Shown: piece after piece, positions 3,710-57,612 of the stretch
How positions within the stretch are numbered: the stretch's first letter is position 1
Layout of the letters: each line of letters begins with the position of its first letter
NCBI RefSeq assembly: GCF_003149375.1
Contig: NZ_QFWH01000001.1
Coordinates: 419,593-483,592 of the forward strand
Direction of reading: 5' to 3'
Source of the DNA: Vampirovibrio chlorellavorus
GTDB lineage: Bacteria > Cyanobacteriota > Vampirovibrionia > Vampirovibrionales > Vampirovibrionaceae
Length of the DNA stretch: 64,000 nt
Notes under the pieces: model-generated
Databases searched by the model: none
Told to the model about the DNA's origin: nothing
What the model saw: only the letters and a program-made list of their open reading frames with translations
Translations under genes and position numbers: made by a program

Positions 3710-5236
3710 TCAGTTGTTGTAAAAAAGTATCTGGCTCTGCCGGGGCTTGGGCCTTGCCGACATGGGCGGCCAGGGGTGACTCTGTGTCAGGATGGCCCCC
3801 GTGCCGGACAAGATGGCCGATATGCCCGTATTGCTGGCAATGGCCAACGGTGTTCTGCTTTCTGCCGCCCGCAGTTGGCCGATGGCCAGAAACTGGGCCT
3901 CAATCAGCGGGTTTTGATGAAACCAGCCCAGATTGCTCAGGTTGATGAGTAAATCGGCACCTCGCTTGCGGTAAGCCTCAGTGAACGAGCCGTCAATGAG
4001 TTCAAAGCAGACCAGTCCGCCCAGTTGGTAAGGGCCTGCCGCTAAAGGCTGGGTGCTTTGCCCCATAGTATAAGGGGCGGAATACTCCACCTGAAAGGTT
4101 CGCAAGGCCTTGCTCAGAAAATCGCCCAGCTGGTACGGGGTGTATTCTCCAAAGGGAACCAGTCGCCGCTTGTGGTAAAAACGGATGGGCTCCTTTGCGG
4201 TGGCCGGTAATAAAGCGATGCTGTTGAACAGTTGCCCGTTTGGGGATTGGCTACTGATGCCCAGCGCAATGGAAACGGCTTTCAGTTGGGCTAGATGAGC
4301 CAGTTGCCCAAGAATCGGGTGATCCAGAGGGGATGCCAGATCTACCAGGCCGGGGGCTGCCCCTTCTTCCGGGAGTAAAATCAGGCTGCCCGTTGGAAAA
4401 TACGTGGTTTGTATGGGATGCAGGTATGCGGACTTGCTCTCTTCTTCGGTCAACTGGCCGGAGCGAATGAGTTCAATGGGCAAATTGGCCTGAACGATGG
4501 CCACCGGCATCGGGATATGGGCACCCTTCTGCGGCTCCGGTAATGCGTTGAGCAGGGCTAATAGGCCCGGTAGACAAAACAAGATTACCGTTTTCAGGAT
4601 GTTTGGGCGATTCAAAGGATTGGCTTCGATTGCTCGAACACTTTCAGCCAGCAGCACGGCATAAACAATCAGTGAAAACACAATGCCCACTCCCCCCAGC
4701 TGGCTGGCCAGCCAGCGCAGGGGCCATAATCCGGCTTGTGTATATTCCAGTAAGCCCCAGGGGAGGGCTAGTGGGGTGGCATTTAGCATCGAAAACAGTG
4801 CAATCCATGCTAGGGGAAGTCCAAAGAGCCGCCAAGCAAAAGGCTTATTAGGATCGGCCAGTCCAAAAAATCCACTGGTTAGAAGCCCCCCCTCGGTGCC
4901 AATCAGGAGCCATCCAGCCAGCGTGACCAGGCGGCTGCTAAGTTCATCAAAGCCCAGCCAGGTCAGGGGGTGTAAATCGAAAAACCAGAGGCAGTATGCG
5001 GCCTGAAAGCAAAACCCGAACCAGAATCCGCCCCAGGCCCTTTGTTGAAAGGTGGGGCATTGGTAGGTCCATAACAGTGCCGGGGCAATGGCCAGCCAGG
5101 CCAGCCACCACAGGTGGTATCCCGGCGCGCTGAGCCCCAATAACACTCCGAAAAATGCCATCGGCAAGGGCTTTTTCTGAAAGTTGGCCGCCAAGAACGT
5201 CTGTAAGCTGGACGACTGGGGAAAAGAAGCTGTCAT
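3710..5236 (-). CDS. lnt: Apolipoprotein N-acyltransferase. The N-terminal domain is polytopic membrane and the C-terminal domain is a CN-hydrolase
   Basis: The ORF is 508 aa. Multiple TM helices precede a nitrilase-like domain with FYHKRRLVPFGEYTPY. The start may instead be the internal Met (MAFFGVLLGL..., at 5161). Confidence 0.85.
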   Translation of the reverse strand: MTASFPQSSSLQTFLAANFQKKPLPMAFFGVLLGLSAPGYHLWWLAWLAIAPALLWTYQCPTFQQRAWGGFWFGFCFQAAYCLWFFDLHPLTWLGFDELSSRLVTLAGWLLIGTEGGLLTSGFFGLADPNKPFAWRLFGLPLAWIALFSMLNATPLALPWGLLEYTQAGLWPLRWLASQLGGVGIVFSLIVYAVLLAESVRAIEANPLNRPNILKTVILFCLPGLLALLNALPEPQKGAHIPMPVAIVQANLPIELIRSGQLTEEESKSAYLHPIQTTYFPTGSLILLPEEGAAPGLVDLASPLDHPILGQLAHLAQLKAVSIALGISSQSPNGQLFNSIALLPATAKEPIRFYHKRRLVPFGEYTPYQLGDFLSKALRTFQVEYSAPYTMGQSTQPLAAGPYQLGGLVCFELIDGSFTEAYRKRGADLLINLSNLGWFHQNPLIEAQFLAIGQLRAAESRTPLAIASNTGISAILSGTGAILTQSHPWPPMSARPKPRQSQILFYNN

Positions 5237-5253
5237 GCGGGGATACGGTCTCT

Positions 5254-5262
5254 TGCTATAAT
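5254..5262 (+). promoter_or_regulatory. Extended -10 element (TGcTATAAT) ending 6 nt before the ruvC ATG. The ruvC mRNA is probably leaderless or near-leaderless
   Basis: The sequence tcttgcTATAATgccgctATGaga is seen directly. No Shine-Dalgarno is possible in the 6-nt gap. Confidence 0.4.
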
Positions 5263-5268
5263 GCCGCT

Positions 5269-5805
5269 ATGAGAATTTTAGGCATCGATCCGGGATTGGG
5301 CAGAGTGGGCTTTGGCCTGGTGGAAACCGTGCGGGATACCAACTGTTCCGCAGGCTGGGCGGGGGAGGAGTTCGGGGCGTGCCAGTGGGGGATTATCGCC
5401 ACCACCAAAGATAAGTCGGACGGGGCCCGCCTGCAAGAGATTCACGATGATCTCACCCAGGTTCTGGAGCAGTTGCGGCCCGATGTGGTGTCCCTTGAGC
5501 GCTTGTTTTACTTTCGGAACAACACCACCATTATACCGGTGGCTCAGGCCCGGGGGGTCATCCTGATGTTGACCCATCGCTTTAACTTACCGGTTTACGA
5601 GTATACCCCCATGCAGGTCAAGCAGGCGGTTACCGGCTACGGTAAGGCTGAAAAGGCCGAGGTGCAGGAGGCTTTGATTCAGTTGCTGAAGCTGGATAAG
5701 AAGCCCACCCCGGATGATGCCGCCGATGGCCTTGCTTTGGCGGTGTGTTACTACAATCAGGTGGGTCGGCTGCAGGTGCTGCAAGGGGCTGGGAGGGCGC
5801 TCTAG
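5269..5805 (+). CDS. ruvC: Crossover junction endodeoxyribonuclease RuvC
   Basis: MRILGIDPGLGRVGFGLVE... The internal Met of ORF 5155..5805 is at codon 39. The RuvC fold motifs are present. Confidence 0.9.
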   Translation: MRILGIDPGLGRVGFGLVETVRDTNCSAGWAGEEFGACQWGIIATTKDKSDGARLQEIHDDLTQVLEQLRPDVVSLERLFYFRNNTTIIPVAQARGVILMLTHRFNLPVYEYTPMQVKQAVTGYGKAEKAEVQEALIQLLKLDKKPTPDDAADGLALAVCYYNQVGRLQVLQGAGRAL

Positions 5806-5912
5806 CGGAAAGCGCCACAGCGCCTGAGGGAGGGGTGTGGTTGTTCCACTGGCGTCTTTTGGGTAGAGTTGGATTATATATGCCATCAGCACAACGAGAT
5901 GAGGATTTTGCG

Positions 5913-6932
5913 ATGCAACAGGCAGTACGTGTGGCCGTTTTTGGTTTTGGTGGACTGGGCAAGGGCATGGCCCGTTTAATTCCCCATCGTCCTGATTTTA
6001 AGTTGGTGGCCGTGGCCGACAGCCAGGGCTTTGCCTTTAACGCCAATGGCTTGTCCCTGAACGAGTCTTACGAACTGAGCCAGCCTTTGCACTCCGACTC
6101 GGACTCCATCATCAGCCTGCTGAAGGCTCATGCCGATGAAATTGACGCTGTGTTTATGGCCTTGCCCAACTTGCCGGTGGAATTTTTCGCCGATACCGTG
6201 AAGCGCATTGTGGAGGAAACCGGCTTTAAAGGGGTGTTCGTGGACGCCCTGAAGCGCACTGAGGCGGTGGAGCGCTTGTTTGCGCTGCACAACGAATTGA
6301 GTGAGCAAGGGATTTTGTACGTCACTGGGGCGGGCGCCACTCCCGGCTTCCTGACCACCGTGGCCGCCGTGGCCGCGCATTCCTTTGTGGAAGTGCTGGA
6401 TGTCAACATTCACTTTGGGGTGGGTATTGCCAACTGGGAAGCCTACAAAGCCACGGTACGCGAAGATTTTATTCACCTGGAAGGCTTTGACGCCAAGCGG
6501 GTAGCCTGCATGAGCGATGAGGAAATCGCTGAAGAGCTGAGCGTCCGCAACGGCTTGCTGAAGCTGGTGGACATGGAACACGCCGATGATGTCATTCTGG
6601 AACTGGCGGGCGTTTGCCCCCGGGATCGGGTGCGTGTGGGCGGTTTGGTGGATACCCGTAACGCCAAAAAGCCGGTGAATACCACCGTTACCGTGACGGG
6701 CCGCACCATGAGCGGCGCCGTGGGCAGTCATCAATTCGTGGTGAGTGATGAAGCCACCATGGTGGACAACGTGTGCGGCCCTGCGCTGGGCTTTATGCTG
6801 CGGGCGATTGAAATGCACCAGCGGGGTTTCTACGGCCTGATTACTTCCGCCGACATTATGCCCCGCTTTGCCAGCCGGGTGCCGGGTGAGCAGGCTCAGC
6901 CTCTGCAAGCGGACATGGCCCTGAGCGTATAG
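5913..6932 (+). CDS. NAD(P)-binding oxidoreductase of the meso-diaminopimelate D-dehydrogenase (Ddh)-like family
   Basis: The N-terminal Rossmann motif is VAVFGFGGLGKGMARLI...KLVAV. VTGAGATPGF resembles the Ddh VSTGWDPGMF. GAGGA sits 7 nt upstream of ATG 5913. The longer ORF from 5745 would overlap ruvC. Confidence 0.45.
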   Translation: MQQAVRVAVFGFGGLGKGMARLIPHRPDFKLVAVADSQGFAFNANGLSLNESYELSQPLHSDSDSIISLLKAHADEIDAVFMALPNLPVEFFADTVKRIVEETGFKGVFVDALKRTEAVERLFALHNELSEQGILYVTGAGATPGFLTTVAAVAAHSFVEVLDVNIHFGVGIANWEAYKATVREDFIHLEGFDAKRVACMSDEEIAEELSVRNGLLKLVDMEHADDVILELAGVCPRDRVRVGGLVDTRNAKKPVNTTVTVTGRTMSGAVGSHQFVVSDEATMVDNVCGPALGFMLRAIEMHQRGFYGLITSADIMPRFASRVPGEQAQPLQADMALSV

Positions 6933-13776: not shown

Positions 13777-14370
13777 ATGAGCGATAAATATCTCATTGTG
13801 GGGCTGGGCAATCCCGGCAAACAGTACGAGGCCACCCGCCATAATATTGGCTTTATGGTGCTGGAGGCCCTGAGCCGTCGGGCCGGTATCGTCGGCAAGT
13901 CGGAGAGTCGCTTTAAGGCCGTGGTGGGTCTGGGCCGTCTGGGCAGTTACCCGGTGATTCTGGCTCAACCGCTGACTTACATGAATTTATCGGGTGAAGC
14001 GGTGCTGAAGCTGATGAACTATTATGATGTGCCCCCGGAGCGCCTGTTGGTGATTTATGACGAGGCGGCCTTGCCCTTCGGCAAAATCCGGGTACGGCCC
14101 GCTGGCAGTGATGCCGGTCAAAAAGGGGTGCGCTCCATTATTCAGCAGTTGGGCGGTAATCAGCAGTTCGCCCGGCTGCGGGTGGGCATTGGCTCTCCCC
14201 CCCCGCCCATGGCCATGCCGGATTTTGTGCTGTCCAAATTCGCCCCGGAAGAGCAGAAACATCTGCCAGAGATTATTGACGCGGCACTGGATGCCGTGGA
14301 AGCCTGGATGAGCGTAGGGGTGGAAGAAACCATGACCCGTTATAACGGGCGCCTGTTGTTACCGCAGTGA
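13777..14370 (+). CDS. pth: Peptidyl-tRNA hydrolase
   Basis: MSDKYLIVGLGNPGKQYEATRHNIGFMV is a canonical Pth N-terminus. Confidence 0.95.
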   Translation: MSDKYLIVGLGNPGKQYEATRHNIGFMVLEALSRRAGIVGKSESRFKAVVGLGRLGSYPVILAQPLTYMNLSGEAVLKLMNYYDVPPERLLVIYDEAALPFGKIRVRPAGSDAGQKGVRSIIQQLGGNQQFARLRVGIGSPPPPMAMPDFVLSKFAPEEQKHLPEIIDAALDAVEAWMSVGVEETMTRYNGRLLLPQ

Positions 14371-15339
14371 CGAGTGACCGCTCGCCCATTGTTTCAGGCA
14401 TTTGGCCAGCGGACGGTAGCTGTGATCCAGCACAAAGTTTACTCCATGGTCGATGGGATGCACGATAAAGGGGATGATGGCCATACTGCCGATTAACGGC
14501 AGGGCGATACACAGGTTCTTTTCGGCTTTAGGCCCCCATTTTTGAACCATTTCGGCGAATTTTTGAGAGGGCTTTAGTTTTTGCAGCAGGTGATCGTCAA
14601 TGCCTTTTTTCAGCTTGCCCAACCAGCGCTGATCGAAGCGGTACCAGCCTTTGGCCTCAATCTCGTGGCTGATTTCATGCTGAAGTATTTCCTTGACCGC
14701 CTTTTGCTTGCCCAATAGGCGGTTTAGTCCCAGCTTCAGACTGTCCCGGGTTACGGCCACCAAAAAGGCCGGAATGGAATAGCTGGCCCCATACTGGAAC
14801 AGGGCTGCATCCAGACCCGAGGTGGTGGCGCTGAGGACTTGAAGCCCTTGGCTCTCTCCGGCGTTTCTGGATTGCCGGTACCCTTTGACGGCTTTGTCAA
14901 AGGCATCCAAAGCCACGTAGCCACCCACCGCGGTATAGGAGTGCTTGACGATGCCATCGGCGTTATTGCTGGTAAGGGAAGAGGCTTTGAGCAGGTCCTT
15001 GAAGGATTCCCCCAGTTCGTTTACGTACCCCAGATAGCGCAAAGGCGTATCTCTATAGATATCTTTAGCTGCTCCCGTGGCCTGCTGGTGATGGTGGGAG
15101 CCTTGATGGGGCTGGTGATGGCGGGGTGTGGCCATGGGAGCCATTCCCTGGGCCGCCGACATTGGGTTTTGATTGGCAGGCGTCGCATGGAAGGCTTTGG
15201 TGGTTGCTGGACCACTCCAGATTGGGGAAGGCGATGCCAAAGAGGCTGGGCGAGCAGGGCCATAGCCGTTAGGCGGGTATGGCTGCTGGGCCGTCCAGAC
15301 GGGGATTGGCGGTAAGGTATTCGCTAGAGTCGGTTGCAA
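14359..15339 (-). CDS. MTP18/MTFP1-like domain protein. The core is homologous to eukaryotic mitochondrial fission process protein 1. It has a Pro/His-rich N-terminal tail and an inserted basic helical segment
   Basis: DIYRDTPLRYLGYVNELGESFKDL aligns to human MTFP1 DLYRDTWVRYLGYANEVGEAFRSL. YVALDAFDKAVK aligns to YVLADAIDKGKK, and IIPFIVHPIDHGVNFVLDHSYRPL to IPIIIHPIDRSVDFLLDSSLRKL. The human sequence is recalled from memory. Confidence 0.6.
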   Translation of the reverse strand: MQPTLANTLPPIPVWTAQQPYPPNGYGPARPASLASPSPIWSGPATTKAFHATPANQNPMSAAQGMAPMATPRHHQPHQGSHHHQQATGAAKDIYRDTPLRYLGYVNELGESFKDLLKASSLTSNNADGIVKHSYTAVGGYVALDAFDKAVKGYRQSRNAGESQGLQVLSATTSGLDAALFQYGASYSIPAFLVAVTRDSLKLGLNRLLGKQKAVKEILQHEISHEIEAKGWYRFDQRWLGKLKKGIDDHLLQKLKPSQKFAEMVQKWGPKAEKNLCIALPLIGSMAIIPFIVHPIDHGVNFVLDHSYRPLAKCLKQWASGHSSLR

Positions 15340-15436
15340 GGTCTTTGAATCTCTTTGCGGATATTACAGGCTTTATACACTTAACAACCCTGAAGCGGGT
15401 TTTTTGATAGTTTGTAAAGTCTGTTTAAGAGCAGGC

Positions 15437-16300
15437 TTATGCGATATGTTTCTGGCTTAAAATGCGGGCCCGGCCTAATGTCTGCGCCAACTGGGTCAGG
15501 AATCGTCTTACCTGGGGAATGGGGGCGTTGTTGTTGATGACCAAATCGGCCACTTCACGGGTGGGCAGAATATGTCGTTCCAGGCATTGCACGGTGGTAC
15601 GCCACATGTTGTCGGTAATACCCCGGTTTTCCTGAATATTTCGGGATAGCCAGCGTTGGCGACGGGTCTGTTCATCCACATCCACATAAATTTTAAAGTG
15701 GTATAAGGGCAAAATGGCCGATTCATAGAAGGCATGAATCCCTTCGGTGACCATAAAGGGTGTCACTGTGAGAGGCAGGTCTTCTTCAATGATGCTGGGT
15801 TTCTGTTGGGGGGTGCCAAAGCGCAGTTTGGGGATGTAGATGCTTCCGCCCAGCGGCTGAGCCTGAAAGCGTTGTAAGTCTCGCCCCAAATGCCGAAAGC
15901 GGATGTGATCGGGGTCATCAAAGTCGATATGATCGTAAAACAGGCTCAGGGGCACATGCGGAAAGTCCGCCTCAAAGTCCCGGTAGTAATTGTCCTGACT
16001 AAAGGAGGCCACTTCGGTGAACTGGCTCAGTTCCTGCACCAGTGTTTCCCGGATAAAAGACTTGCCGGAGCCGGAAGGGCCGGTGAGGGCAACCACAAAA
16101 GGCTGAGGAACAAAGGCGATATGGTGGGCCCACCGGGACAGGTCGTCCCAGAAAAACAGCGAAACGGACTGCACGACAGGCATTTCGCTTCGACTGTCCT
16201 CGGCCAGAAGCGCTTGCACCTGGGAAATGATCGAATCAATCCCTCTGGAGGGAGGGAAGGCGGTCTCGGGGCTATCGGCAGGGGGATTTCTATGAGTCAT
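15437..16300 (-). CDS. PRK-family P-loop kinase (phosphoribulokinase/uridine kinase/pantothenate kinase-like)
   Basis: The P-loop VVALTGPSGSGKSF sits about 75 aa from the N-terminus. KIYVDVDEQTRRQRWLSRNIQENR and the C-terminal ILPTREVADLV match the CoaA/Udk family. Confidence 0.6.
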   Translation of the reverse strand: MTHRNPPADSPETAFPPSRGIDSIISQVQALLAEDSRSEMPVVQSVSLFFWDDLSRWAHHIAFVPQPFVVALTGPSGSGKSFIRETLVQELSQFTEVASFSQDNYYRDFEADFPHVPLSLFYDHIDFDDPDHIRFRHLGRDLQRFQAQPLGGSIYIPKLRFGTPQQKPSIIEEDLPLTVTPFMVTEGIHAFYESAILPLYHFKIYVDVDEQTRRQRWLSRNIQENRGITDNMWRTTVQCLERHILPTREVADLVINNNAPIPQVRRFLTQLAQTLGRARILSQKHIA

Positions 16301-16529: not shown

Positions 16530-17642
16530 GTGATTAGTCAGCAATCGGACAATCTGGACGCCAATCTCGCTCCATTTCTGGAGCTGGGCGTGGAAACGGA
16601 AGAAGGCCTGCGATCTTCGGAAGACCAGCCCCTGTCCGCTCGTCGGGCTCTGAATGGAACGGCCTATAGGATTTATCGACTCCTGCAATGGCTCATTCAA
16701 GCGCCCCTGACCGTTGACCAGCTGAATCGAAAATTTGAGCAGGATCCGGGGATCGGCAAGCCTGTTTCCAACGATTCCATCTGGTTGTATGTCAATACCC
16801 TCAAGGCGCTGGGCTGTGTTATTCGTCGGCCCAGCCCACGCAATGGTTTTGCCTATCAAATGGTCAGTCATCCGTTTGGAATGACGCTCGAGCAAAACGG
16901 GCTGGAGGTTCTGGCGCAGGCCAAGGTGGTGGCGCAACGGCATTTCTCGCCGCAGGAAATGTTGGCCCTGGACAGCCTGCTGAAGAAGATGATCGCCCAG
17001 AGTCTGTTGCAAGGCTCTGAGGATGGTAGTGAATGGATGACCCAGTTGTTTGTGCAAAGCCGCAGTCTCGACTCTCAGGAATGCCGGACGCGCATTGAGC
17101 AACTGGAGCGCTCTATTCTGGAAGAGAGTTTACTGGAAGTCACCTACGCCTCTCCCCTGAAGGGTGAAAGTGTGTTCACCTTTCTGCCTGAGAGCCTGTT
17201 TTATCGTCAGGGGGTGGTTTATGTGCGAGGCGAACGTCTGGACTATCCGGGGCCCAGCAGTTTGCGAGTGGATCGTTTACTGGGTGTGCAAACGATTCAG
17301 GATGATGACTTACGCACTCAGCTGATTGACCGTCAGCAGGTCAAGGTTGAGATTGTGCTGAAGGTTTTTGTGAGATCACCGCGCGGTTTTCAGGGGTTTG
17401 CCCTGGACCCCAATCAGGGCGTCTATCAGGAAAGCCGTTTGTGGGTGGATGGCCCGGACCCCCATTACGAGGTTCGCCTGCTGGTGCGGGATTTCTTTTA
17501 TGTGAAGCAGACGCTCTTGTCTCTGGGCTTGCCCTTTGCCATTGAGAGCCCGGATGTATTCAGGCAGGACATGAGGGAAACCCTTGATACGATGCTGGAA
17601 TTTTACAAGGCGAAAGGAAGTACAGCGGATGGCCATGGCTAG
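16530..17642 (+). CDS. WYL-domain transcriptional regulator, 1 of 2. It has an N-terminal winged HTH, a central WYL-like domain and a C-terminal extension, in a PafB/PafC/BrxR-like architecture
   Basis: It has a GTG start. The wHTH is SNDSIWLYVNTLKALGCVIRRPSPRNGFAYQM. The WYL-like core is VFTFLPESLFYRQGVVYVRGERLDYPGPSSLRVDRL. Confidence 0.6.
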   Translation: MISQQSDNLDANLAPFLELGVETEEGLRSSEDQPLSARRALNGTAYRIYRLLQWLIQAPLTVDQLNRKFEQDPGIGKPVSNDSIWLYVNTLKALGCVIRRPSPRNGFAYQMVSHPFGMTLEQNGLEVLAQAKVVAQRHFSPQEMLALDSLLKKMIAQSLLQGSEDGSEWMTQLFVQSRSLDSQECRTRIEQLERSILEESLLEVTYASPLKGESVFTFLPESLFYRQGVVYVRGERLDYPGPSSLRVDRLLGVQTIQDDDLRTQLIDRQQVKVEIVLKVFVRSPRGFQGFALDPNQGVYQESRLWVDGPDPHYEVRLLVRDFFYVKQTLLSLGLPFAIESPDVFRQDMRETLDTMLEFYKAKGSTADGHG

Positions 17643-33663: not shown

Positions 33664-33762
33664 CTCGAGTCGCTTCCTCAAGATTTGGCGGGCCTGCTAC
33701 ACTGAATAGCGGGCCCGTCTTCGGGTTTGGTTGATCAGTCTGTTGACAAGGGAGAGCCGCCC

Positions 33763-36306
33763 ATGGGCCGGACAGAGAGCGAGCAAGTTGCAACATCAGC
33801 GGAGGCATTGACCGTGCCCGCGCCATTGTCCGTTTACTACCATACGCATTGGGATCGGGAGTGGTACCTACCCTTCCGGGCCTATCAGTTGAGGTTGGTG
33901 GAGGTGGTGGATGATATTCTGGAGCGCTTGGAAAGCGGCGTTTTCTCCTGCTTTATGCTGGATGGGCAAACGGTGGTGCTGGAGGACTATCTGGCACTTC
34001 GTCCCCAACAGGCGGATCGGTTGCGGCATTTCATTCAGTACGGACAACTCAGTATTGGTCCCTGGTATGTCATGCCCGATGAGTTTTTGGTGGGCGGGGA
34101 AAGCCTCATTCGCAATTTGGCGCTGGGGCTGCGTCAATCCCGGGATTGGGGTTGTAAGGCCTTCACCGGCTATTTGCCGGACACCTTCGGGCATTCCGCG
34201 GATATGCCCACCCTTTTTCAGCACTGCGGCCTTGATTCGGCGGTGGTGTGGCGGGGAGTGTTCCCGAAAAAAAGCGTGTTCCAATGGCAAAGTCCTGCGG
34301 GTCATCTGGTTAAAACCTTGCACCTGACCGACGGTTATTTTCAGATGATGTTGCAGGACTGGACGGCGGAGCCGGAGGCGCAGGCTGCTGCCTTGCGGGG
34401 GTTGGTGCAAAAATTGAAAGCGGTTCAGGTGGAGGGCGTTCCGCCGCTGTTGCCCATGGGGGGCGATCATTTGGGGCCATTGCCAGCCGAAGCCCATCAG
34501 CGACTGAAGGCGTTGTATCCGAATTTACAGGCAACCACGCCCGATGCTTACTTGCGCCAATTTACCCCTATCGAGGCATTGGAAACGGTGGCTGGGGAAT
34601 TGGTGGATAATACGGGCAGTTTTCTGCTGCCGGGGGTGTATTCCGCCCGCATGTACCTGAAACAGGCTAACCGCAGGCTGGAGCATGCCCTGGTGCGTCA
34701 ACTGGAACCGTTGCTGGCCATGGCGCAGGGGTTACTCCCCAATCGGCAAGCTGAGTATCCTGAGCAGGCTTTGGCGTTAGCCTGGCAAACCCTGATCCTG
34801 AACCATCCCCACGATAGCATTTGCGGTTGCAGCGTGGATGCCGTACATCGGGAGAATGAGGTGCGCTTTGATCAGGTGGCGCAGATCGCTGAGGGGTTGC
34901 GGCAGCGCAGTGAACAGCGCTTTCGTCGGGTTCTGGCCACTGGGGATGAGTGGATTGTTTTCAATACCAGCGGGCAACCCTATACGGGGGTGGTGCCGGT
35001 GACAGAAGATGTTCCCGATGGGCAGGCTCCTTCTTTCCTGACCCAGCAGGCTTCGGAAACCGCTGTGCTACAGGATGAGTATCTCCACGATAGTCAGCGG
35101 ATTCCCCTGTCGCACCTGACCAAAGTGCGTCGTCAGGGCTGGATTTGGGTGGAGAACATTCCGCCGTTGGGCTATGCCGTGCTGAATCGGGATACAGCCC
35201 TTGGGAAGCAGGGCCACGCGACGGTTTTGGCTGATTCTGCCCGGCTGGAGAATGATCAGTTGCGGGTGTCTGTCGATGCCCAAGGCCGCTTATCCGTTGA
35301 GTGGATGGCCACCGGTCAGCGGTTTGAGGATTTGTTGACCTTTACCGATCGGCCGGATCAGGGGGATTCCTACAACAGTGGGCCGGTACCGGGTACGGTT
35401 CCTCAGGTGGCCGTGTTTACTGGTAGTCGGGTGGTGCAAGCCGGGCCGCTGGTGGGCATACTGGCGCTGACCCATCACTTCCCGGATTCTGATTGCTCGC
35501 TGGTCACGCAGGTTCGGCTAGATGCGGGGAGTGCCCGCCTGGATTTTGAAACCACCTTTATCAACCATGCCTCCCAGCATAAGCTGCAAGCGGTGTTCAA
35601 TACCGGGCAGCCGATTCGTCGGGTGGTGGCGGAAAGTCATTTGGGCGTGGTGGCGCGTACTTATGACCCAGCGTACCGGGAAGTGGATCGGATGCCTGTA
35701 GCGCCCATGCAGGAACTGGCGACCAATACGGGCCCCGTTCAGCGCTTTTTGAGCGCCAACGGTCAGGGTTTTGTTACCGAAGGCCTGTGCGAGTACGAAG
35801 TGTTTCAGGACACGCTGGCAATTACCTTGCTGCGGGCTTTTGGTGCTTTGTCCAGTGCGGATACGGGCGTACGAGGGGCTCAGGCTGGGCCTCCTTTTGA
35901 AACGCCGGAAGGGCAGTGTCTGGGGCGTATGTTCCGGTGTCGGTACGCCTGGACTCCCCAAGGGGATGAGCCGAGCGCTCTGTTTGAGATGGCGGATCGG
36001 TTTTATGGCACCGTATGGGGCCTGACCGGTGTTGCCCAGCAGGCCAGCGCAGCGCCAGCCGGGGCGCTGATCACGGTGGAAAACCCTGAAGTGGTGGTGG
36101 CGGCCTGCTACTGGTCGGTTGGGCAGGGCTGGATTCTGCGGTTACTGAACCCCACCGGACAGGAGCAACAAACGGCCCTGCATACCGGGTTTGAATGCGC
36201 TTCTCTGTGGGAGGTGAACTTTCTGGAGGAGCGGCAGCAGGCTGTTTCAGCGGCATCTGTGACCATTCCGGCCCGAAGTGTTAAAACCTTGCTGTTTGCG
36301 GTGTAG
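33763..36306 (+). CDS. Glycoside hydrolase family 38 alpha-mannosidase
   Basis: SVYYHTHWDREW is at the N-terminus. The motifs DGQTVVLEDY, GPWYVMPDE, GYLPDTFGH and LNHPHDSICGCSVD are present. The start is taken at ATG 33763 with AGGGAG upstream. Confidence 0.9.
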   Translation: MGRTESEQVATSAEALTVPAPLSVYYHTHWDREWYLPFRAYQLRLVEVVDDILERLESGVFSCFMLDGQTVVLEDYLALRPQQADRLRHFIQYGQLSIGPWYVMPDEFLVGGESLIRNLALGLRQSRDWGCKAFTGYLPDTFGHSADMPTLFQHCGLDSAVVWRGVFPKKSVFQWQSPAGHLVKTLHLTDGYFQMMLQDWTAEPEAQAAALRGLVQKLKAVQVEGVPPLLPMGGDHLGPLPAEAHQRLKALYPNLQATTPDAYLRQFTPIEALETVAGELVDNTGSFLLPGVYSARMYLKQANRRLEHALVRQLEPLLAMAQGLLPNRQAEYPEQALALAWQTLILNHPHDSICGCSVDAVHRENEVRFDQVAQIAEGLRQRSEQRFRRVLATGDEWIVFNTSGQPYTGVVPVTEDVPDGQAPSFLTQQASETAVLQDEYLHDSQRIPLSHLTKVRRQGWIWVENIPPLGYAVLNRDTALGKQGHATVLADSARLENDQLRVSVDAQGRLSVEWMATGQRFEDLLTFTDRPDQGDSYNSGPVPGTVPQVAVFTGSRVVQAGPLVGILALTHHFPDSDCSLVTQVRLDAGSARLDFETTFINHASQHKLQAVFNTGQPIRRVVAESHLGVVARTYDPAYREVDRMPVAPMQELATNTGPVQRFLSANGQGFVTEGLCEYEVFQDTLAITLLRAFGALSSADTGVRGAQAGPPFETPEGQCLGRMFRCRYAWTPQGDEPSALFEMADRFYGTVWGLTGVAQQASAAPAGALITVENPEVVVAACYWSVGQGWILRLLNPTGQEQQTALHTGFECASLWEVNFLEERQQAVSAASVTIPARSVKTLLFAV

Positions 36307-47428: not shown

Positions 47429-47536
47429 TCCACCGGCTGTAATTCATTCGGATAGAGGATCAGCCTGGCAGGGATAGAAGGGTATGCTGGACAGAGGACA
47501 AGATCCAGATTTTTGAGTAATCACTGAGCGAACGAT

Positions 47537-48550
47537 ATGCCTGCAGCCCGTAAGCCTAAAAAGATTTTCATCCAGTTTGCCATCGCCATGGTGGTGGCTG
47601 TCATCTTTGGGGTTTCTGCCATTGTCGTCGGGTTTATGGTGATTCAGGGTATTTCCACCAACGCGGAGCAGGTGCAAAAAGAAGCGGCTGCCAAGGCGGA
47701 AGCCGCCAAGGTGGAAGCGGAAAAGTATCGTAAATTGCAGGAACAACTGAGCAGAACGCCCAAAACCTATCGCGTGGTAACGGCTTTGGTCGATTTAAGG
47801 CCCGGTCAAACCATTACCAAAGATATCGTGACCCTGGCGGAGGTTGTGGAAAGACCCTTGCCCGGTACTTTGAGCCTGATTTCCCAGGCGATGGGCAAGG
47901 TGGTCAAGTCGCCGGTACTGACCGGAGAACCGCTGGACAGCTCCAAATTGATGGATACCGGTGGTATTTCGGTGGAACCCGGGATGCGGGCCATTACGAT
48001 TGAAGTGAATAACATCGGTGGGCTTGGAGGCGCATTGCCGCCGGGCGCCCATGTGGATGTATTGACCACCGTGTTCAAGGAAGATGAGGCCATCACGCGT
48101 ACCTTGCTGCAAAATGTGCCGGTTGTCGCTGTGAACGCTGCCGGGGCGGGCTCCGCGGCTCGTTCGGGTTCTGCGTCAAAATTGACTGCTGTGACTGGTG
48201 GTAATTATGCCGTTACTTTGGTGGTAAACCCTGCTCAGGCGGAATTGCTGACTTTGGCCGGCCAGCTGGGAGGATTTCATTTAACCCTTCGTAATTTCTC
48301 GGATGCTCGGAAATCGACTTTGGCGGGTGCGGATTTGACCAGTGTGATGACCGGAATTCAGCCGGCTACTTTCAAAGGAAACATCCCCGTACGGCCAGCA
48401 AAAGGGACCGACAAATCCGGCTTTTACAACGTGAATTACTCCCCTGCGGATAATTTGCCTTACCCGGAGCCGGATAGCAAGGCCGGTAATAAATTTACGA
48501 TGCAGGTGTATCGGGGAACCGGTACGGAAACCATTGATTTTCAGCGCTAA
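47537..48550 (+). CDS. cpaB: Flp pilus assembly protein CpaB/RcpC
   Basis: An N-terminal TM is followed by a SAF-like domain (TYRVVTALVDLRPGQTITKDIV) and a C-terminal beta-rich domain. Confidence 0.85.
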   Translation: MPAARKPKKIFIQFAIAMVVAVIFGVSAIVVGFMVIQGISTNAEQVQKEAAAKAEAAKVEAEKYRKLQEQLSRTPKTYRVVTALVDLRPGQTITKDIVTLAEVVERPLPGTLSLISQAMGKVVKSPVLTGEPLDSSKLMDTGGISVEPGMRAITIEVNNIGGLGGALPPGAHVDVLTTVFKEDEAITRTLLQNVPVVAVNAAGAGSAARSGSASKLTAVTGGNYAVTLVVNPAQAELLTLAGQLGGFHLTLRNFSDARKSTLAGADLTSVMTGIQPATFKGNIPVRPAKGTDKSGFYNVNYSPADNLPYPEPDSKAGNKFTMQVYRGTGTETIDFQR

Positions 48551-48600
48551 AAACCCCGCTGATGATTGGTCAGTATCTATTTAACCAAAAGGATGACGCT

Positions 48601-50139
48601 ATGAACGGGAGAAGTGGAAAAAGGCTGATGAGAATGGCCTTGGCTGTGGTGGTGGCCGCACATCTGCTTCCCGTGTCCGCATTGTTGTTGGGGGCGGTGG
48701 CCGCTGACGGAAATGGGGGCAAGCCCGCCAAGATGGTGGTGCAGATGCCTGAGTTAAACCCTCAGCCTTTAGAGGCCTCTAGTCTGCCCGCTCCGGTCGC
48801 GGTTCAGCAGGCAACCCCCACCAAGGCAGAAACGCCTGCTTTTATCCTGCAGCATCTGGATGAGAGTGAAACACTCAATCGTGTGGCTGGGGCACCCCAA
48901 AAAACCAAAGCGCTGCAAGGGAGTGTCACCAGTATTCACGTGACGCGGGGACGCTCTCAAATCGTTAAGTTCGCCCAGCCCATCATGCGCTTGTCCATTG
49001 CGGAGCCTTCGGTGGCCGACATCATTCCTTTGTCTCCGGATCAAATCATGGTGAATGGCAAACTGCGTGGGGTAACCAGTTTGATTGTATGGGATGAAAA
49101 CGGACAAGAGGGTATTTTTGATCTGTACGTTCAAAATGATAGCAGTGAGCTGCTGGATGCGGTCAGTAACATTGCTCCCAATGAGAAAATTCAGGCTCGG
49201 GTGACCGATGATTCCTTTATCCTGTCGGGCCAGGTATCGAGTTCCGTAGTACTGGACGAGATCCGAAAAACAGCGGCCGCCTATGGCTACCGGGATGATA
49301 AATTTATCGATCTGACCGATACCCCGGTACCTCAGGTTTTGCTGGAAGTTCGGATTGCGGAGGCCAACCGCAGTATTGGTCGTGAATTAAAAACGGCCTA
49401 TCAGATGCGTTCTGCCAAAGGTGATCTCAATATGATTCGGCTGGCCAATCCGTTGGATGGATCTTTTCTATCAAATATACAGAGAGCGACCAGTGGACTC
49501 AATCCCAGTGCCTTTGGCCCAATACAGAACAATCAGGCCAGTACCAATGTGGGTGGCTCTACAGGCTCGGTTACCCCTTTTCGAAATTTCAGCGTAATGT
49601 GGGACATGCTGGAAACTTCCGGCAAGCTGAATACGCTGGCCAATCCAACCCTGGTATGTACGCATGGGCGCAGTGCCAGTTTTCTGGCCGGGGGAGAATT
49701 TCCATACGTGGCTGGCACGGATCAGAACGGCAGCCCGATTATTCAGTTTAAGGAATTTGGGGTGAAGCTGGGCTTTACACCGTGGATTGCCATTAAGTCT
49801 GGCCGTATCGAATTGAAAGTTTCTCCCGAAGTCAGCAATGTGGATACTTCCAATTGTCAGACTACCACCGGGGGGACACAGGTTTGCGGTATCGCCAGAC
49901 GTTCCACGGATACGACCGTAGAACTGATGGATGGGGAAACGCTGATGATTTCCGGTATTTTAAGCAGAGAGGAGCAAAATACTTTCAGCAAAATACCGTT
50001 TATTGGAAATTTGCCCATTTTAGGCAACTTCTTTAAAAATGCCGATATGAGTAAGAGTGATCGGGAGTTGGTGGTGGTGATAACTCCGCATATCGTCAAG
50101 GCAGCCGATTACGGCAAGGTTTTAGGAACCGTGCAATAA
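48601..50139 (+). CDS. cpaC: Tad/Flp pilus secretin CpaC/RcpA
   Basis: A signal peptide is followed by the secretin C-domain (GGEFPYVAGTDQNGSPIIQFKEFGVKLGFTPWI...ELVVVITPHIV). The start is at Met14 with an AAGGA RBS. Confidence 0.9.
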   Translation: MNGRSGKRLMRMALAVVVAAHLLPVSALLLGAVAADGNGGKPAKMVVQMPELNPQPLEASSLPAPVAVQQATPTKAETPAFILQHLDESETLNRVAGAPQKTKALQGSVTSIHVTRGRSQIVKFAQPIMRLSIAEPSVADIIPLSPDQIMVNGKLRGVTSLIVWDENGQEGIFDLYVQNDSSELLDAVSNIAPNEKIQARVTDDSFILSGQVSSSVVLDEIRKTAAAYGYRDDKFIDLTDTPVPQVLLEVRIAEANRSIGRELKTAYQMRSAKGDLNMIRLANPLDGSFLSNIQRATSGLNPSAFGPIQNNQASTNVGGSTGSVTPFRNFSVMWDMLETSGKLNTLANPTLVCTHGRSASFLAGGEFPYVAGTDQNGSPIIQFKEFGVKLGFTPWIAIKSGRIELKVSPEVSNVDTSNCQTTTGGTQVCGIARRSTDTTVELMDGETLMISGILSREEQNTFSKIPFIGNLPILGNFFKNADMSKSDRELVVVITPHIVKAADYGKVLGTVQ

Positions 50140-50163
50140 TGCGTCCGGCAAGAGAGTAAGGAC

Positions 50164-51384
50164 ATGTCAAATAATTTAACCGTTGTGATTATTGAGGAAA
50201 ACCCGGCTGTTCGAGCGTTATTGCAGACGGCTTTACTGGGCATTCCCGGTGTGGAAATTCTGGCCGAGACCGATAGTCTGGTTTACGGTTATGAATTGAT
50301 TCGCCAGAATCGTCCTAAAGTGGTATTTCTGGATTTACGGGAGAATGCCGCGAAAAGTCTGGACACGGCCCGGCGAATTTCCTCTTATTTCAAAGATGTG
50401 CTGCTGATTGCCTCTGGGCCGGATATGAGTCTGGAGATGATCAAGGCTTGCATGGAAGTAGGCATTCGCGATTTTCTCAAGCGGCCTTTCGATGCTGCTC
50501 AGGTCAAGGAGGTGCTGGAGAAACATCAGTTGGCCTTACTGGCCAGTACCGATGCGGGCGATAGAAGCGGTCGAATTGTGACGGTGTTCAGTAACAAGGG
50601 CGGGCTGGGAAAAACCACCATTGCCGTTAATCTGGCTTTGGCCCTTTCAGAAACCATTGGCAAACCGGTTGCCCTGGTTGATTTGAACTTGCAACTGGGC
50701 GACATTACCACTTTCCTGGATGTGGAGCCCAAGCAGACCATTGTCGATGTTGCGCGTAATATTGGGCGCGTGGATGCGGCGTATCTGGAAGGCTCCCTGG
50801 CACAGTATCAAACCAAAAACGCCACGGTTTACGTGTTGGCTGATCCCTTGTATGTGGAAGACGCCGAGGAAGTAACCGCAGAACAGATTAACGCTGTTTT
50901 GACCGTACTGCGGGCCACCTTTGAATACGTGATTATTGATACTACCACGTCTTTTGACTCTAAAACGCTGGCGGCGCTCGATTTGGCCGATTACATTCTT
51001 CTGGTGACCATGGTTAATCTTCCCAGTATTCGCAGTAGCCAGCGATTGCTCAACCTGTTTGAGCGGCTTGGCTATGATGCTCAAAAAATAAAGCTGGTGA
51101 TCAATCGTTATATTCCGGGTGAGGAAATTACCATTGAGGACGTGGAAGAAACGCTGGAGCATCCCCTGTTCTGGAAAATCCCCAATAATTATGGGGTGGT
51201 GATGACGGCAATCAACCGGGGTATTCCAATCTCAATGGTGGAGAACAGCAAGGCGCTGGAGAAAAATTTCCTGGAACTGGCCCAGAAACTGAGCGGTGTC
51301 CTGTCATCATCCGGTGTCGCCTATTCCACACCCGCCCGCAAGGAGTCCAAAAGTATTTTAGGCAACTTGTTCGGCAAACGGTAA
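50164..51384 (+). CDS. cpaE: Flp pilus assembly ATPase-like protein CpaE/TadZ, with a receiver-like N-domain and a ParA/MinD-like domain
   Basis: VIIEENPAVRALLQTAL... then SNKGGLGKTTIAVNLALAL, a deviant Walker A. Confidence 0.85.
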   Translation: MSNNLTVVIIEENPAVRALLQTALLGIPGVEILAETDSLVYGYELIRQNRPKVVFLDLRENAAKSLDTARRISSYFKDVLLIASGPDMSLEMIKACMEVGIRDFLKRPFDAAQVKEVLEKHQLALLASTDAGDRSGRIVTVFSNKGGLGKTTIAVNLALALSETIGKPVALVDLNLQLGDITTFLDVEPKQTIVDVARNIGRVDAAYLEGSLAQYQTKNATVYVLADPLYVEDAEEVTAEQINAVLTVLRATFEYVIIDTTTSFDSKTLAALDLADYILLVTMVNLPSIRSSQRLLNLFERLGYDAQKIKLVINRYIPGEEITIEDVEETLEHPLFWKIPNNYGVVMTAINRGIPISMVENSKALEKNFLELAQKLSGVLSSSGVAYSTPARKESKSILGNLFGKR

Positions 51385-51413
51385 GACAATTCAATTAAGG
51401 TCTGGGAGCCTCT

Positions 51414-52892
51414 ATGTCTTTAAGGGATCGTTTAAAAAAACCGGGAGTGCCACAGAGTGGCTCCTCTTTTGGTTTGGAAGCCAACAGTTCCCAGGCGTCC
51501 GGAAACGCACAGACTTCGTTTGGCTCGCTATCGTCGTCCGGATATGGAAACACCACGCCGGGAGCGGCAGGCGCCCCTGAGAACCATAACAACCAGCCTA
51601 GAAAGGGAGACCGGTTTGAGGAGGTAAAAACGAAAGTTCATAACATGCTGGTGGAAAATTTGAATATTACTTCCACTGATGTGTTGAGTAAGAATGATGT
51701 GTCTCTAGCGGCCTATCAGTTTCTGGAAAAAATCCTGATGGCTGAAAAAGTGCCCATGGGCACTTCAGAACGCTCCATGCTGATTCAGGAACTGGTGGAA
51801 GAAGTGGTGGGCCTGGGGCCTCTGGAGCCTTTGCTGAGGGACCCTACCATCTCTGAAATCATGGTGAATGGGCCCAAGAATGTTTACATCGAGCGCATGG
51901 GTAAGCTGCACAAGACGACCGTCAGCTTTAAAGACAATGCGCATGTCATGCATATTATTGAGCGGATTGTTTCTGCGGTGGGTCGCCGGGTGGATGAGAA
52001 AACGCCCATGGTGGATGCCCGCCTGAAGGATGGTTCCCGGTTTAACGCCATTATTCCCCCATTGGCGCTGGATGGCCCTTCTATCTCCATTCGTAAGTTC
52101 AAGGCGGATGCCGGGACATTGGAAAAACTATTGGGCTGGGGCTCCATGACCCCCGCGATGGCCAAAACATTAGAGGCCGCTGTGAGGTGTCATTTAAATA
52201 TCATTATTTCCGGGGGAACCGGCTCCGGTAAAACAACCATGCTGAACTCGTTATCGGCGCTGATTGCTCCCGATGAACGGATTGTGACCATTGAGGACTC
52301 CGCGGAATTGCAGTTGAAGCAAGAGCATGTGGTGCGCTTGGAAACCCGTCCGCCCAACATTGAGGGGGAAGGTCAGATTACGGCCCGGCAACTCATGATC
52401 AACTCGCTGCGGATGCGTCCGGATCGCATTGTGGTGGGTGAGTGTCGGGGCCCAGAAACCCTGGAAATGTTGCAGGCCATGAACACGGGACACGATGGCT
52501 CCTTGACCACACTGCACGCCAACACGCCTCGGGATGCCATTGCCCGTATTGTGACCATGTGCATGATGAACGATAATCCCCTGCCTGAAAAAACCATTCG
52601 GCAACAAATTGCCTCGGCCGTCCATCTGATTGTGCAGGTCAGCCGTTTAATGGATGGACAGCGCAAGACCACTTCCATCTCCGAGATTACAGGAATGGAA
52701 GGGGACATGGTCACCATGCAGGAAATTTTTAAATTTGAGCAATACGGTCTGGATGAAAATTTCAAAGTGATTGGCCGTCACGTGGCGACCGGTGTTCGTC
52801 CCCGCTTTGCCGATATTTGCAAGGCCAAAGGGATTGAGTTGCCCCATAACATTTTTGAGCGGGATGATTCTCCGCCACCTGAGGTGAAATAG
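51414..52892 (+). CDS. cpaF: Tad/Flp pilus secretion ATPase CpaF/TadA
   Basis: Walker [13 protein letters not shown], His box and Asp box, VirB11/GspE-like. Confidence 0.95.
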
Positions 52893-52919
52893 ACTGTACT
52901 TAACTGGAAGCGCCTGTTA

Positions 52920-53924
52920 ATGAGTCCAATGCTGCTACTGATTCTGATGCTGATGGCCTTCTTATTGATGGCGGTTGGTTTTGGGGCGGCTGTTTTTTTG
53001 TTCCAGAGATATGCCAATCCTGAGCCGACCGAAGTTCAGAAGCGGTTAATGATGCTCAAGCAAAGGACGGTCAGCGAGAGTCAGGGCCCCGCTGAAGATC
53101 AGTTGAAAAAGCTGGCCTCTCTGTTTAAGGAGGCCGATTATCAAAATGAAAAACTCGGTGCCAAGCTGGAGCGGATTCCTTTTTTCCTGACCCTGAAAAT
53201 TCGGATGCAGCAGGCTGGTATTAACACACCCGCTGATAAATATTTCATTATGAATATGTTGATGCCAGTGGTGATCCTGACGGTTCTGGCGCTTGTCAGT
53301 GGTTTTTTCATGATGATATTGCTGGGATTGATATGGTCGGTGGGTTCCTACCTTTTGGTTTTATTCAAACGCAAGCAGCGTTACGCGAAATTTATTGCCC
53401 AGTTTCCAGACGCTTTGAGTATGATTACCAGCGCGCTGAGGGCTGGCCATTCTTTCCAGTCGGCTTTGACCGTGGTTGCCAGTGAAATGCCCAATCCAAT
53501 CGCCCTGGAGTTCGCGTCCATGGTGAAAGATATTAATCTGGGCATTCCGGTTCGGGAGTCTCTGTCGCGTCTGGTGGCCAAACTGGATACGTTGCCCGAT
53601 GTTCGCATGTTCGCCACCGCCGTGATGATTCAGCGAGAGGCGGGTGGTAACCTGGCTGAGGTGCTGGAGAGTTTGGGATACACCATTCGTGAGCGTTTTA
53701 AATTAAAAGGTCAAATCTCGGCTTTGACCGGTCAGTCCCGATTAACCGGTTATGTGTTGGGCGGGGCTCCGGCGTTTTTGCTGATTCTTTTATCGGTGTT
53801 CTTCTATGGCTATGTTTCCCCACTCTACGAGACTGAAATGGGTCATGTGGCCTTGATGATCGCTGTGGTTTTACAATGTATAGGCTTTTCTATTATGAAA
53901 AAAATTGTGGATATTCGGGTGTAA
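52920..53924 (+). CDS. tadB: Tad pilus inner-membrane platform protein TadB (T2SSF family)
   Basis: GspF-like domain with conserved IQREAGGNLAEVLESL. Confidence 0.85.
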   Translation: MSPMLLLILMLMAFLLMAVGFGAAVFLFQRYANPEPTEVQKRLMMLKQRTVSESQGPAEDQLKKLASLFKEADYQNEKLGAKLERIPFFLTLKIRMQQAGINTPADKYFIMNMLMPVVILTVLALVSGFFMMILLGLIWSVGSYLLVLFKRKQRYAKFIAQFPDALSMITSALRAGHSFQSALTVVASEMPNPIALEFASMVKDINLGIPVRESLSRLVAKLDTLPDVRMFATAVMIQREAGGNLAEVLESLGYTIRERFKLKGQISALTGQSRLTGYVLGGAPAFLLILLSVFFYGYVSPLYETEMGHVALMIAVVLQCIGFSIMKKIVDIRV

Positions 53925-53926
53925 TC

Positions 53927-54913: not shown

Positions 54914-54978
54914 GCCGGGCAAAGTTTTGTGGCTTTGTCGGGTTAAAAACAGGGCCGGTTGTTGATAGAATAGCAGGC

Positions 54979-55782: not shown

Positions 55783-55783
55783 A

Positions 55784-56575: not shown

Positions 56576-56745
56576 AATGAAATCCTCACGGTTGGGCTGT
56601 CAAGCCAAAGCTCGGCAATGGTTCCAGCGAGCCCGGCTGGGCTGTCTTTTCCCCATAAAAACGGCTGATTGCATTTTTGTGTTAGTCAAGGCGGATTCAC
56701 AGCGGCCAGGCTGGAAGCCCCAACCGCCGAAACGGAACTCAGGAT

Positions 56746-57501: not shown

Positions 57502-57612
57502 AGCGGAAGGGGTCCTTCGATCTGCCCGGTTGATGGGCGTTTGAGGCAACGCAAGGCAGCTTGATGATGGAAATAGATTGTCACAATCCGAAGATAGCCG
57601 GATAATAATACT

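Follow-up and report, generated by a model that had tools for sequence, protein, structure and literature searches.

A divergent MTFP1/MTP18 homologue of Vampirovibrio chlorellavorus and its bacterial family in Vampirovibrionia

The mitochondrial protein MTFP1 (mitochondrial fission process protein 1, or MTP18; 166 residues in human) is a subject of intensive research on the heart, the liver, and cancer, and its role is disputed: it has been regarded as a fission factor, as a brake on proton leak, and as a regulator of inner-membrane fusion. MTFP1 occurs across eukaryotes, including the jakobid Andalucia (PMC7050145). Outside eukaryotes the family was already visible in databases, since annotation pipelines had tagged a few bacterial relatives with the Pfam family PF10558 and UniProt names homologues in the giant viruses Terrestrivirus, Tupanvirus, Fadolivirus, and Yasminevirus. 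Our literature search retrieved no paper on bacterial MTFP1 homologues, none citing PF10558 or IPR019560, none joining MTFP1/MTP18 with Vampirovibrio, Melainabacteria, or Vampirovibrionia, and none linking MTFP1 with giant viruses. An MTFP1-like gene was not mentioned in the passages of the Vampirovibrio chlorellavorus genome paper that were searched (PMC4451040). Here we describe such a gene in a 64,000-nucleotide stretch of the V. chlorellavorus chromosome (contig NZ_QFWH01000001.1, positions 419,593–483,592 of the forward strand; hereafter the window, to which all unlabelled coordinates refer). The gene, at 14359–15339 on the minus strand, encodes a divergent bacterial variant of MTFP1/MTP18 with two added modules, which scores below the Pfam threshold and belongs to a previously undescribed bacterial family.

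Homology and architecture of the encoded protein

The original prediction, made from the DNA sequence alone, was that the core of this 326-residue protein aligns to eukaryotic MTFP1. The homology held in profile comparisons. A single-sequence search against the 5.8 billion proteins used for the sequence searches retrieved bacterial relatives first and then PF10558 proteins, among them a JGI entry named "fission process protein 1" (E 4.6e-11) and a protein of the green alga Coccomyxa viridis. With a profile restricted to bacterial sequences, named MTFP1 proteins were retrieved for Trichoplax, crustaceans, a mayfly, a diatom, and a red alga at E values from 1e-27 to 1e-18. Alignment by hhalign of the subfamily that contains the window protein (subfamily a, see below) with 15 eukaryotic MTFP1 sequences, most of which carry a source name, gave a probability of 99.9% and an E value of 2.9e-34 over 158 columns, that is, over the whole domain. 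A hidden Markov model (HMM) made from these 15 eukaryotic sequences alone scored the window protein at 100.8 bits. By BLASTP, the protein aligned with named animal MTFP1, namely of a crab (P0071; E 6e-19 over residues 93–309) and of Trichoplax (P0061; E 6e-14). The order of helices in the AlphaFold2 model of the window protein was that of the crab MTFP1 model, and both models matched the same giant-virus MTFP1 models in BFVD. Since the profile search, hhalign, the eukaryote-only HMM, and the predicted helix order agree, we consider the core (residues ~90–322) a true but divergent homologue of MTFP1/MTP18, with a similarity far beyond chance.

The direct check with the Pfam MTP18 model (PF10558) turned out less favourably. 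The only match covered residues 100–160, starting within the first conserved block and extending through the second, and reached 16.3 bits (E 0.0098), below the gathering cut-off of 25 bits. Six of the 14 bacterial members tested matched PF10558 at E ≤ 0.01 (best E 1.2e-4), and a search of NCBIfam with the window protein gave no match. A 2025 review that assigns to MTFP1 a GTPase domain at residues 101–300 and transmembrane domains at residues 400–500 (PMC12477198) was not used for structure: as human MTFP1 has 166 residues and the eukaryotic homologues found here mostly have ~150–250, it evidently mixes MTFP1 with mitofusins.

All four signature blocks of the family were present in the window protein (all on the minus strand), and their conservation was read from an alignment of 72 bacterial and eukaryotic sequences. 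Block 1 (residues 93–116, 14992–15063; DIYRDTPLRYLGYVNELGESFKDL) corresponds to the motif R-D-T-P-L-R-Y-L-G-Y-x-N-E-x-G-E; in it, G104, E108, and E111 were invariant and D93, R96, R101, Y105, N107, and G110 nearly so. Block 2 (residues 134–152, 14884–14940; SYTAVGGYVALDAFDKAVK; motif SY..Y..D..DK) has invariant Y141 and D145 and nearly invariant Y135 and K149, and lies in a long, weakly hydrophobic helix modelled at residues 127–159. Block 3 (residues 176–194, 14758–14814; LDAALFQYGASYSIPAFLV; motif D..WQ..AS..PG) lies in the helix at residues 164–208, with A185 and P190 invariant and Q182 and S186 nearly invariant. Within it, the string LDAALFQYGASYSIPAF (residues 176–192) aligns with the eukaryotic D-T-L-x-W-Q-x-L-A-S-V-x-I-P-G-F. 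Block 4 (residues 277–311, 14407–14511) consists of a hydrophobic helix followed by the motif IPFIVHPID...YRP, the stretch AIIPFIVHPIDHGVNFVLDHSYRPL spanning residues 287–311; D297 was invariant here, L286, I289, P290, P295, I296, and R309 were nearly so, and P281 was invariant in smaller alignments. Three conserved blocks had been predicted, and all three were found; the count is nevertheless four, the block around residues 176–192 having been overlooked.

Two modules are added to this core, both foreseen in the original prediction. The first is an N-terminal tail of 88 residues (15076–15339), rich in Pro, Ala, Gln, and His (17 Pro, 15 Ala, 9 Gln, and 7 His in residues 1–90) and predicted to be disordered: its pLDDT in the AlphaFold2 model was below 50, and its hydropathy was below 0 with no hydrophobic segment. 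The second is a Lys-rich insertion of ~70 residues (205–276, 14512–14727) with 17 K+R against 9 D+E and three predicted helices (residues 212–227, 232–250, and 259–267; pLDDT ~77–95). The insertion was conserved in subfamily a and absent both from eukaryotic MTFP1 and from the other bacterial subfamilies.

Comparison with eukaryotic MTFP1 of the crab, Trichoplax, and Coccomyxa (P0015) thus shows whole-domain homology with ~29–41% identity in conserved columns, the four blocks with their invariant polar residues in common, five core helices arranged in an identical order in the AlphaFold2 models, and the overall character of a small helical membrane protein. The window protein differs from them in its bacterial origin, hence the lack of a mitochondrial inner membrane in its own cell, in the disordered tail, in the insertion placed between core helices 4 and 5, in an added C-terminal helix, in F-Q for W-Q and P-A for P-G in block 3, in the lower hydrophobicity of its first two membrane helices, and in its score under the Pfam gathering threshold.

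The model was all-helical with a core pLDDT above 90. The hydropathy profile had its strongest peak at residues 280–296 and no hydrophobic N-terminal segment that could serve as a signal peptide. The two-helix transmembrane topology of MTFP1, with which comparison had been proposed, was not clearly recovered: one segment is strongly hydrophobic, and two further, long helices are weakly so.

Reading frame, residency, and neighbourhood

The open reading frame at 14359–15339 was confirmed as a coding sequence for 326 residues on the minus strand, with TTG as the start and with the stop codon included in the coordinates, and the three strings originally quoted all occur in its translation. The corresponding NCBI entry, "hypothetical protein [Vampirovibrio chlorellavorus]" (P0001), is 100% identical to the window protein over its 258 residues; it begins at Met69 of the longer form (region 15133–15339, minus strand). 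The annotation of strain NCIMB 11383 (P0002, 311 residues) uses a different start again. The TTG start, the residues QPTLAN directly after it, and the open frame through the tail are common to four Vampirovibrio genomes, and in three of them (L001–L003) the tail frame had no indels or frameshifts. Codon differences numbered 188 non-synonymous and 93 synonymous in the tail, vs. 168 and 384 in the core, which indicates that the tail is far less constrained than the core. Because the start, the QPTLAN string, and the frame are kept in the four genomes, and in view of the tail codon differences, the long form is probably the real protein and the deposited N-terminus truncated.

Putative expression signals can be read upstream of the TTG codon (15351–15368, minus strand): an extended −10-like string TGTAATAT at 15368–15361 and a purine-rich AAAGAG at 15356–15351, with resembling strings kept in L001–L003. 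These are possibly the gene's own signals. A scan for consensus promoters upstream of the TTG did not find a full sigma-70 site, and a terminator scan was equally uninformative. A second MTP18-like copy was not found in the window.

The gene is located, as had been stated, between pth (13777–14370, plus strand), which overlaps its 3′ end by 12 nt, and a gene for a divergent P-loop kinase of the PRK/uridine-kinase family (287 residues, 15437–16300, minus strand; PF00485, E 8.6e-15), which precedes the MTP18-like gene in the same orientation at a distance of 97 nt and scores far under the cut-offs of the NCBIfam udk models. Divergent from this kinase–MTP18-like pair are two overlapping genes for putative regulators of the WYL/WCX type (16530–17642 and 17584–18609, both on the plus strand); this pair was syntenic with the kinase–MTP18-like pair in L001–L004 and in the metagenomic contig L012. 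The order WYL–WYL–PRK–MTP18-like gene–pth–tlyA–gcvT–gcvH was kept in all five. The kinase gene adjoins the MTP18-like gene in these same sequences and not in L008 and L009. An operon-based interpretation was rejected, as the kinase adjacency is limited to a Vampirovibrio-level synteny block and relatives elsewhere have unrelated neighbours; no conserved operon partner of the family was found across the contexts examined.

Both the G+C content of the gene (0.558) and that of its third codon positions (0.636) match the means of the window genes (0.552 and 0.637), and its codon distance is within the distribution of the window genes, in agreement with the native codon usage originally predicted. 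Divergence within the conserved nine-gene block was unequal. The gcvH gene is 100% identical in the three closest genomes, while the MTP18-like gene of L004 is 55–60% identical vs. 64–88% for its neighbours, and that of L012 39–41% vs. 51–80%. Thus, the prediction of a resident gene rather than contamination stands, given the native composition and a synteny kept down to 39% identity. In Vampirovibrio, this chromosomal gene has long been resident and is inherited vertically.

Elsewhere in the window, two large open reading frames encode proteins without a Pfam match at E ≤ 0.01 (22444–25167, plus strand, 907 residues; 20816–22300, minus strand, 494 residues). A further chromosomal gene (33706–36306, plus strand) encodes a GH38 alpha-mannosidase with four Pfam domains; in a bacterium that preys on algae, this enzyme could have glycans of the prey as its substrate.

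Bacterial family and viral homologues

When one genome of each GTDB species was scanned with two peptide patterns, all relatives detected belonged to Vampirovibrionia. They occurred in the four Vampirovibrio genomes, in a metagenome-assembled genome (MAG) of Gastranaerophilales from mouse gut (L005), and in a MAG of Vampirovibrionales (CAYMIG01) with three copies (L006:5923–6594, L007:5998–6663, and L007:6766–7494). Of the CAYMIG01 genes, one belongs to subfamily d (see below), and the two others are adjacent subfamily c copies between the genes for aconitase and class II ribonucleotide reductase. An HMM search of 1.84 billion cluster representatives yielded 1091 matches at E ≤ 0.001, of which the best 150 were combined with the earlier matches into a set of 237 sequences. 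In a neighbour-joining tree of this set (158 columns), 57 sequences fell on the bacterial side of a single split; all 18 sequences with a verified bacterial context were among them, and all named eukaryotic sequences were placed opposite, with a bootstrap of 42/100 for this separation. Mean pairwise identity was 29% on the bacterial and 43% on the eukaryote side. By identity to the window protein, green-algal sequences occupied only ranks 80–119 of the 180 eukaryote-side sequences. The family therefore comprises at least 57 clusters at 50% identity, four subfamilies, and up to three copies per genome. A taxonomic assignment exists for a minority of the bacterial-side sequences; wherever the taxonomy is known, the family is so far confined to Vampirovibrionia. 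The distribution of bacterial relatives, which the original prediction had proposed to check, shows that the V. chlorellavorus gene is not an isolated oddity but one member of a diverse family with paralogues.

Subfamily a, the window type with the insertion, has 13 representatives, so far only in Vampirovibrio-like genomes and unassigned metagenome contigs. Subfamily b is typified by P0011, subfamily c by P0016 and P0017, and subfamily d by L005, L006, P0121, P0146, and P0205. Subfamily d contains members above the Pfam threshold: L006 reached 39.5 bits with PF10558, and precomputed PF10558 matches are on record for P0121, P0146, and P0205. Subfamilies b–d share with the window protein the family, the bacterial class where taxonomy is known, and the occurrence as stand-alone chromosomal genes, and most of them carry low-complexity N-terminal tails rich in Pro, Tyr, and Gln. 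They differ in the absence of the ~70-residue insertion, in their genomic neighbours, and in a sequence identity to the window protein of only ~25–35%.

Every genomic context examined was bacterial, with flagellar genes or genes for PolA, DnaN, MetH, or Tad pilus proteins nearby. PolA of L011, encoded beside a subfamily d gene, had its best named matches in Vampirovibrionales and Melainabacteria. In the same Vampirovibrionia contig, a few genes from the MTP18-like gene, the product of L011:1–261 (plus strand) matches PF05394 (AvrB_AvrC), a family known from type III effectors of plant pathogens. The window itself contains a Tad/Flp cluster at 47528–54913 (plus strand) with RcpC/CpaB, secretin, a CpaE-like response-regulator ATPase, CpaF, TadB, and TadC. 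In L048 (5411–12460) and L011 (8001–16381), an MTP18-like gene of another subfamily is located just upstream of a Tad/Flp cluster, and in L013 (5001–9078) such a gene precedes a Metallophos/methyltransferase pair, the pair that follows TadC in the window (54814–58011). This proximity may reflect nothing more than synteny at the level of the order.

A full-length intron-less MTP18/MTFP1 homologue was present in 33 of the 33 viral contigs returned from IMG/VR (L015–L047), several of which are named giant-virus MAGs. In L029 (3875–4555, plus strand, PF10558 47.7 bits; 5071–6168, minus strand), the gene adjoins those for the major capsid protein of nucleocytoplasmic large DNA viruses (PF04451, PF16903) and mannitol dehydrogenase. 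Like the window protein, the giant-virus proteins (Terrestrivirus A0A3G4ZNQ0, Tupanvirus, Fadolivirus, and IMG/VR) are MTP18 homologues outside eukaryotic nuclear genomes, and in BFVD the window model matched their structures best (target-normalised TM-scores 0.51–0.59). Unlike the window protein, they pass the Pfam threshold, as the L029 score illustrates, and presumably act in host mitochondria. They are nearer to green-algal MTFP1 (41% identity) than to the window protein (29%). They form their own clade, with green-algal MTFP1 as the nearest group, and none was on the bacterial side of the tree; giant viruses were accordingly rejected as the source of the bacterial gene.

Possible role and origin

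Membrane dynamics or host interaction, the candidate functions named in the original prediction, stay hypothetical. We consider it reasonably probable that the window protein resides as an integral protein in the cytoplasmic membrane of the bacterium itself and performs the core activity of the family, its tail and insertion being lineage-specific interaction modules in the cytoplasm. It would be a small helical protein of this energy-transducing membrane, anchored by the strongly hydrophobic helix at residues 277–297 together with the two long, weakly hydrophobic helices. The core activity would reside in the polar residues that are conserved on both the bacterial and the eukaryotic side (R96, R101, E108, E111, D145, Q182, D297, and R309). 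Because bacteria have no ANT, DRP1, or permeability transition pore, this activity could not depend on such partners. By analogy with mitochondrial MTFP1, it might consist in keeping the coupling membrane tight or in modulating membrane remodelling (10.1101/2021.10.21.465262). The disordered tail and the three-helix insertion would face the cytoplasm and probably mediate interactions specific to the lineage. An endogenous role is in line with the presence of the family in a gut genome of Gastranaerophilales, which are not known as predators, with the paralogues in some genomes, with the lack of a signal peptide, and with the lack of secretion-system or mobile-element genes next to the gene.

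Several points weigh against such a role. The MTP18-like gene evolves fastest in its syntenic block, at every phylogenetic distance, which would fit a predator–prey interface. The roles described for eukaryotic MTFP1 are themselves divided among fission, ANT-dependent proton leak, and sensitivity of the permeability transition pore (10.1101/2021.10.21.465262). In the bacterial proteins, two of the three putative membrane helices are only weakly hydrophobic (mean Kyte–Doolittle hydropathy 0.41 and 0.68), and the loops on both sides are positively charged, so the positive-inside rule leaves the topology ambiguous. To these are added the sub-threshold Pfam score and the breadth of the family survey, with its two-pattern scan of single genomes per species, its tree of best matches, and its minority of sequences with assigned taxonomy.

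A weaker rival, which we regard as unlikely, is that the protein is directed against the prey. It would be delivered into Chlorella, for example via the conjugative type IV system for which effector transfer was proposed by Soo et al. (2015), and, once inserted into the inner membrane of the algal mitochondria, would behave as a deregulated MTFP1, so that the mitochondria fragment or become uncoupled and killing of the prey is aided; targeting or translocation would then be the task of the disordered tail and the basic insertion. The lifestyle is suggestive: the genome paper describes V. chlorellavorus as preying obligately and epibiotically on the eukaryote Chlorella, with a predicted transfer of its proteins to prey cells (PMC4451040). 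The homology to a eukaryotic organelle protein, the restriction of the insertion to subfamily a with its Vampirovibrio-like distribution, and the rate of evolution point the same way, and the MTFP1 genes of giant viruses that infect eukaryotes offer a precedent for manipulation from outside. However, the gut MAG of Gastranaerophilales contains a relative, other Vampirovibrionales have several paralogues, and the gene has a native composition and a stable housekeeping synteny rather than a plasmid location. No secretion-system or mobile-element genes are adjacent to it, the neighbours being pth, tlyA, the gcv genes, the PRK-family kinase gene, and the WYL regulator genes, with the Tad pilus cluster 32 kb away. 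The protein has no signal peptide, its strongly hydrophobic helix would be awkward in a translocated substrate, and the ranking given above shows no particular affinity to green-algal over other eukaryotic MTFP1. The conceptual parallel is with eukaryote-like effectors such as the Legionella Dot/Icm substrates, where a bacterium that exploits eukaryotes likewise encodes homologues of eukaryotic organelle proteins. In contrast to those substrates, no N-terminal translocation signal, linkage to a secretion locus, atypical composition, or patchy distribution among strains was found here, and within a single class of bacteria the family is diverse and branches deeply.

As to its origin, the gene had been predicted to be either inherited within the lineage or acquired. 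Long residency is borne out by synteny and composition, whereas a recent acquisition from algal prey is not, given the middling ranks of green algae. An ancient transfer may have gone in either direction: the tree has one split and no outgroup, and therefore its root cannot be placed. Transfer from a eukaryote to a bacterium would be consistent with the wide occurrence of MTFP1 in eukaryotes and its restriction to a single class among bacteria. The opposite direction would be consistent with the greater diversity of the bacterial family and its paralogues, although this diversity could instead reflect a faster rate of evolution in the bacteria. We regard it as a minor possibility that eukaryotes acquired MTFP1 from such bacteria before their last common ancestor, and not the reverse.

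A recent horizontal capture of the prey's MTFP1 by V. chlorellavorus is largely refuted and very improbable. The predatory lifestyle would offer the opportunity, one of the single-sequence matches is from the green alga C. viridis, and green-algal proteins have extra residues between the third and fourth blocks. These points are outweighed by the native codon usage and G+C content, by a synteny that persists among genomes even where the identity of the gene has dropped to 39%, by the four deep subfamilies and the presence of the family in other orders of Vampirovibrionia, by the green-algal ranking, and by the tree, which parts bacterial from all named eukaryotic sequences, though in only 42 of 100 bootstraps. 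Contamination and recent capture are thus excluded because of synteny with divergence, native composition, and the lack of any special closeness to green algae. Finally, an artefact of eukaryotic contamination, misassembly, or chance or low-complexity resemblance is refuted and of negligible probability: although the Pfam match is sub-threshold (E 0.0098) and the tail is of low complexity, the gene lies within a 492-kb contig where it overlaps pth, is syntenic in at least five independent assemblies, and shares four blocks over a 158-column domain outside the tail (hhalign E 2.9e-34).

The occurrence of MTFP1 in Vampirovibrionia would surprise specialists in mitochondrial dynamics, and it raises the evolutionary question of the direction in which the gene passed between eukaryotes and a bacterial class that includes predators of eukaryotic algae. 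If the origin was bacterial, MTFP1 would not be a purely eukaryotic invention; if the protein does enter prey cells, it would represent a novel type of weapon aimed at organelles. The bacterial branch keeps the invariant polar residues without ANT, DRP1, or a permeability transition pore, so the conserved core must do something more basic, and the branch offers a simpler membrane system for finding what MTFP1 does. In either direction of transfer, the bacterial proteins would expose an ancestral, partner-independent activity of MTFP1.

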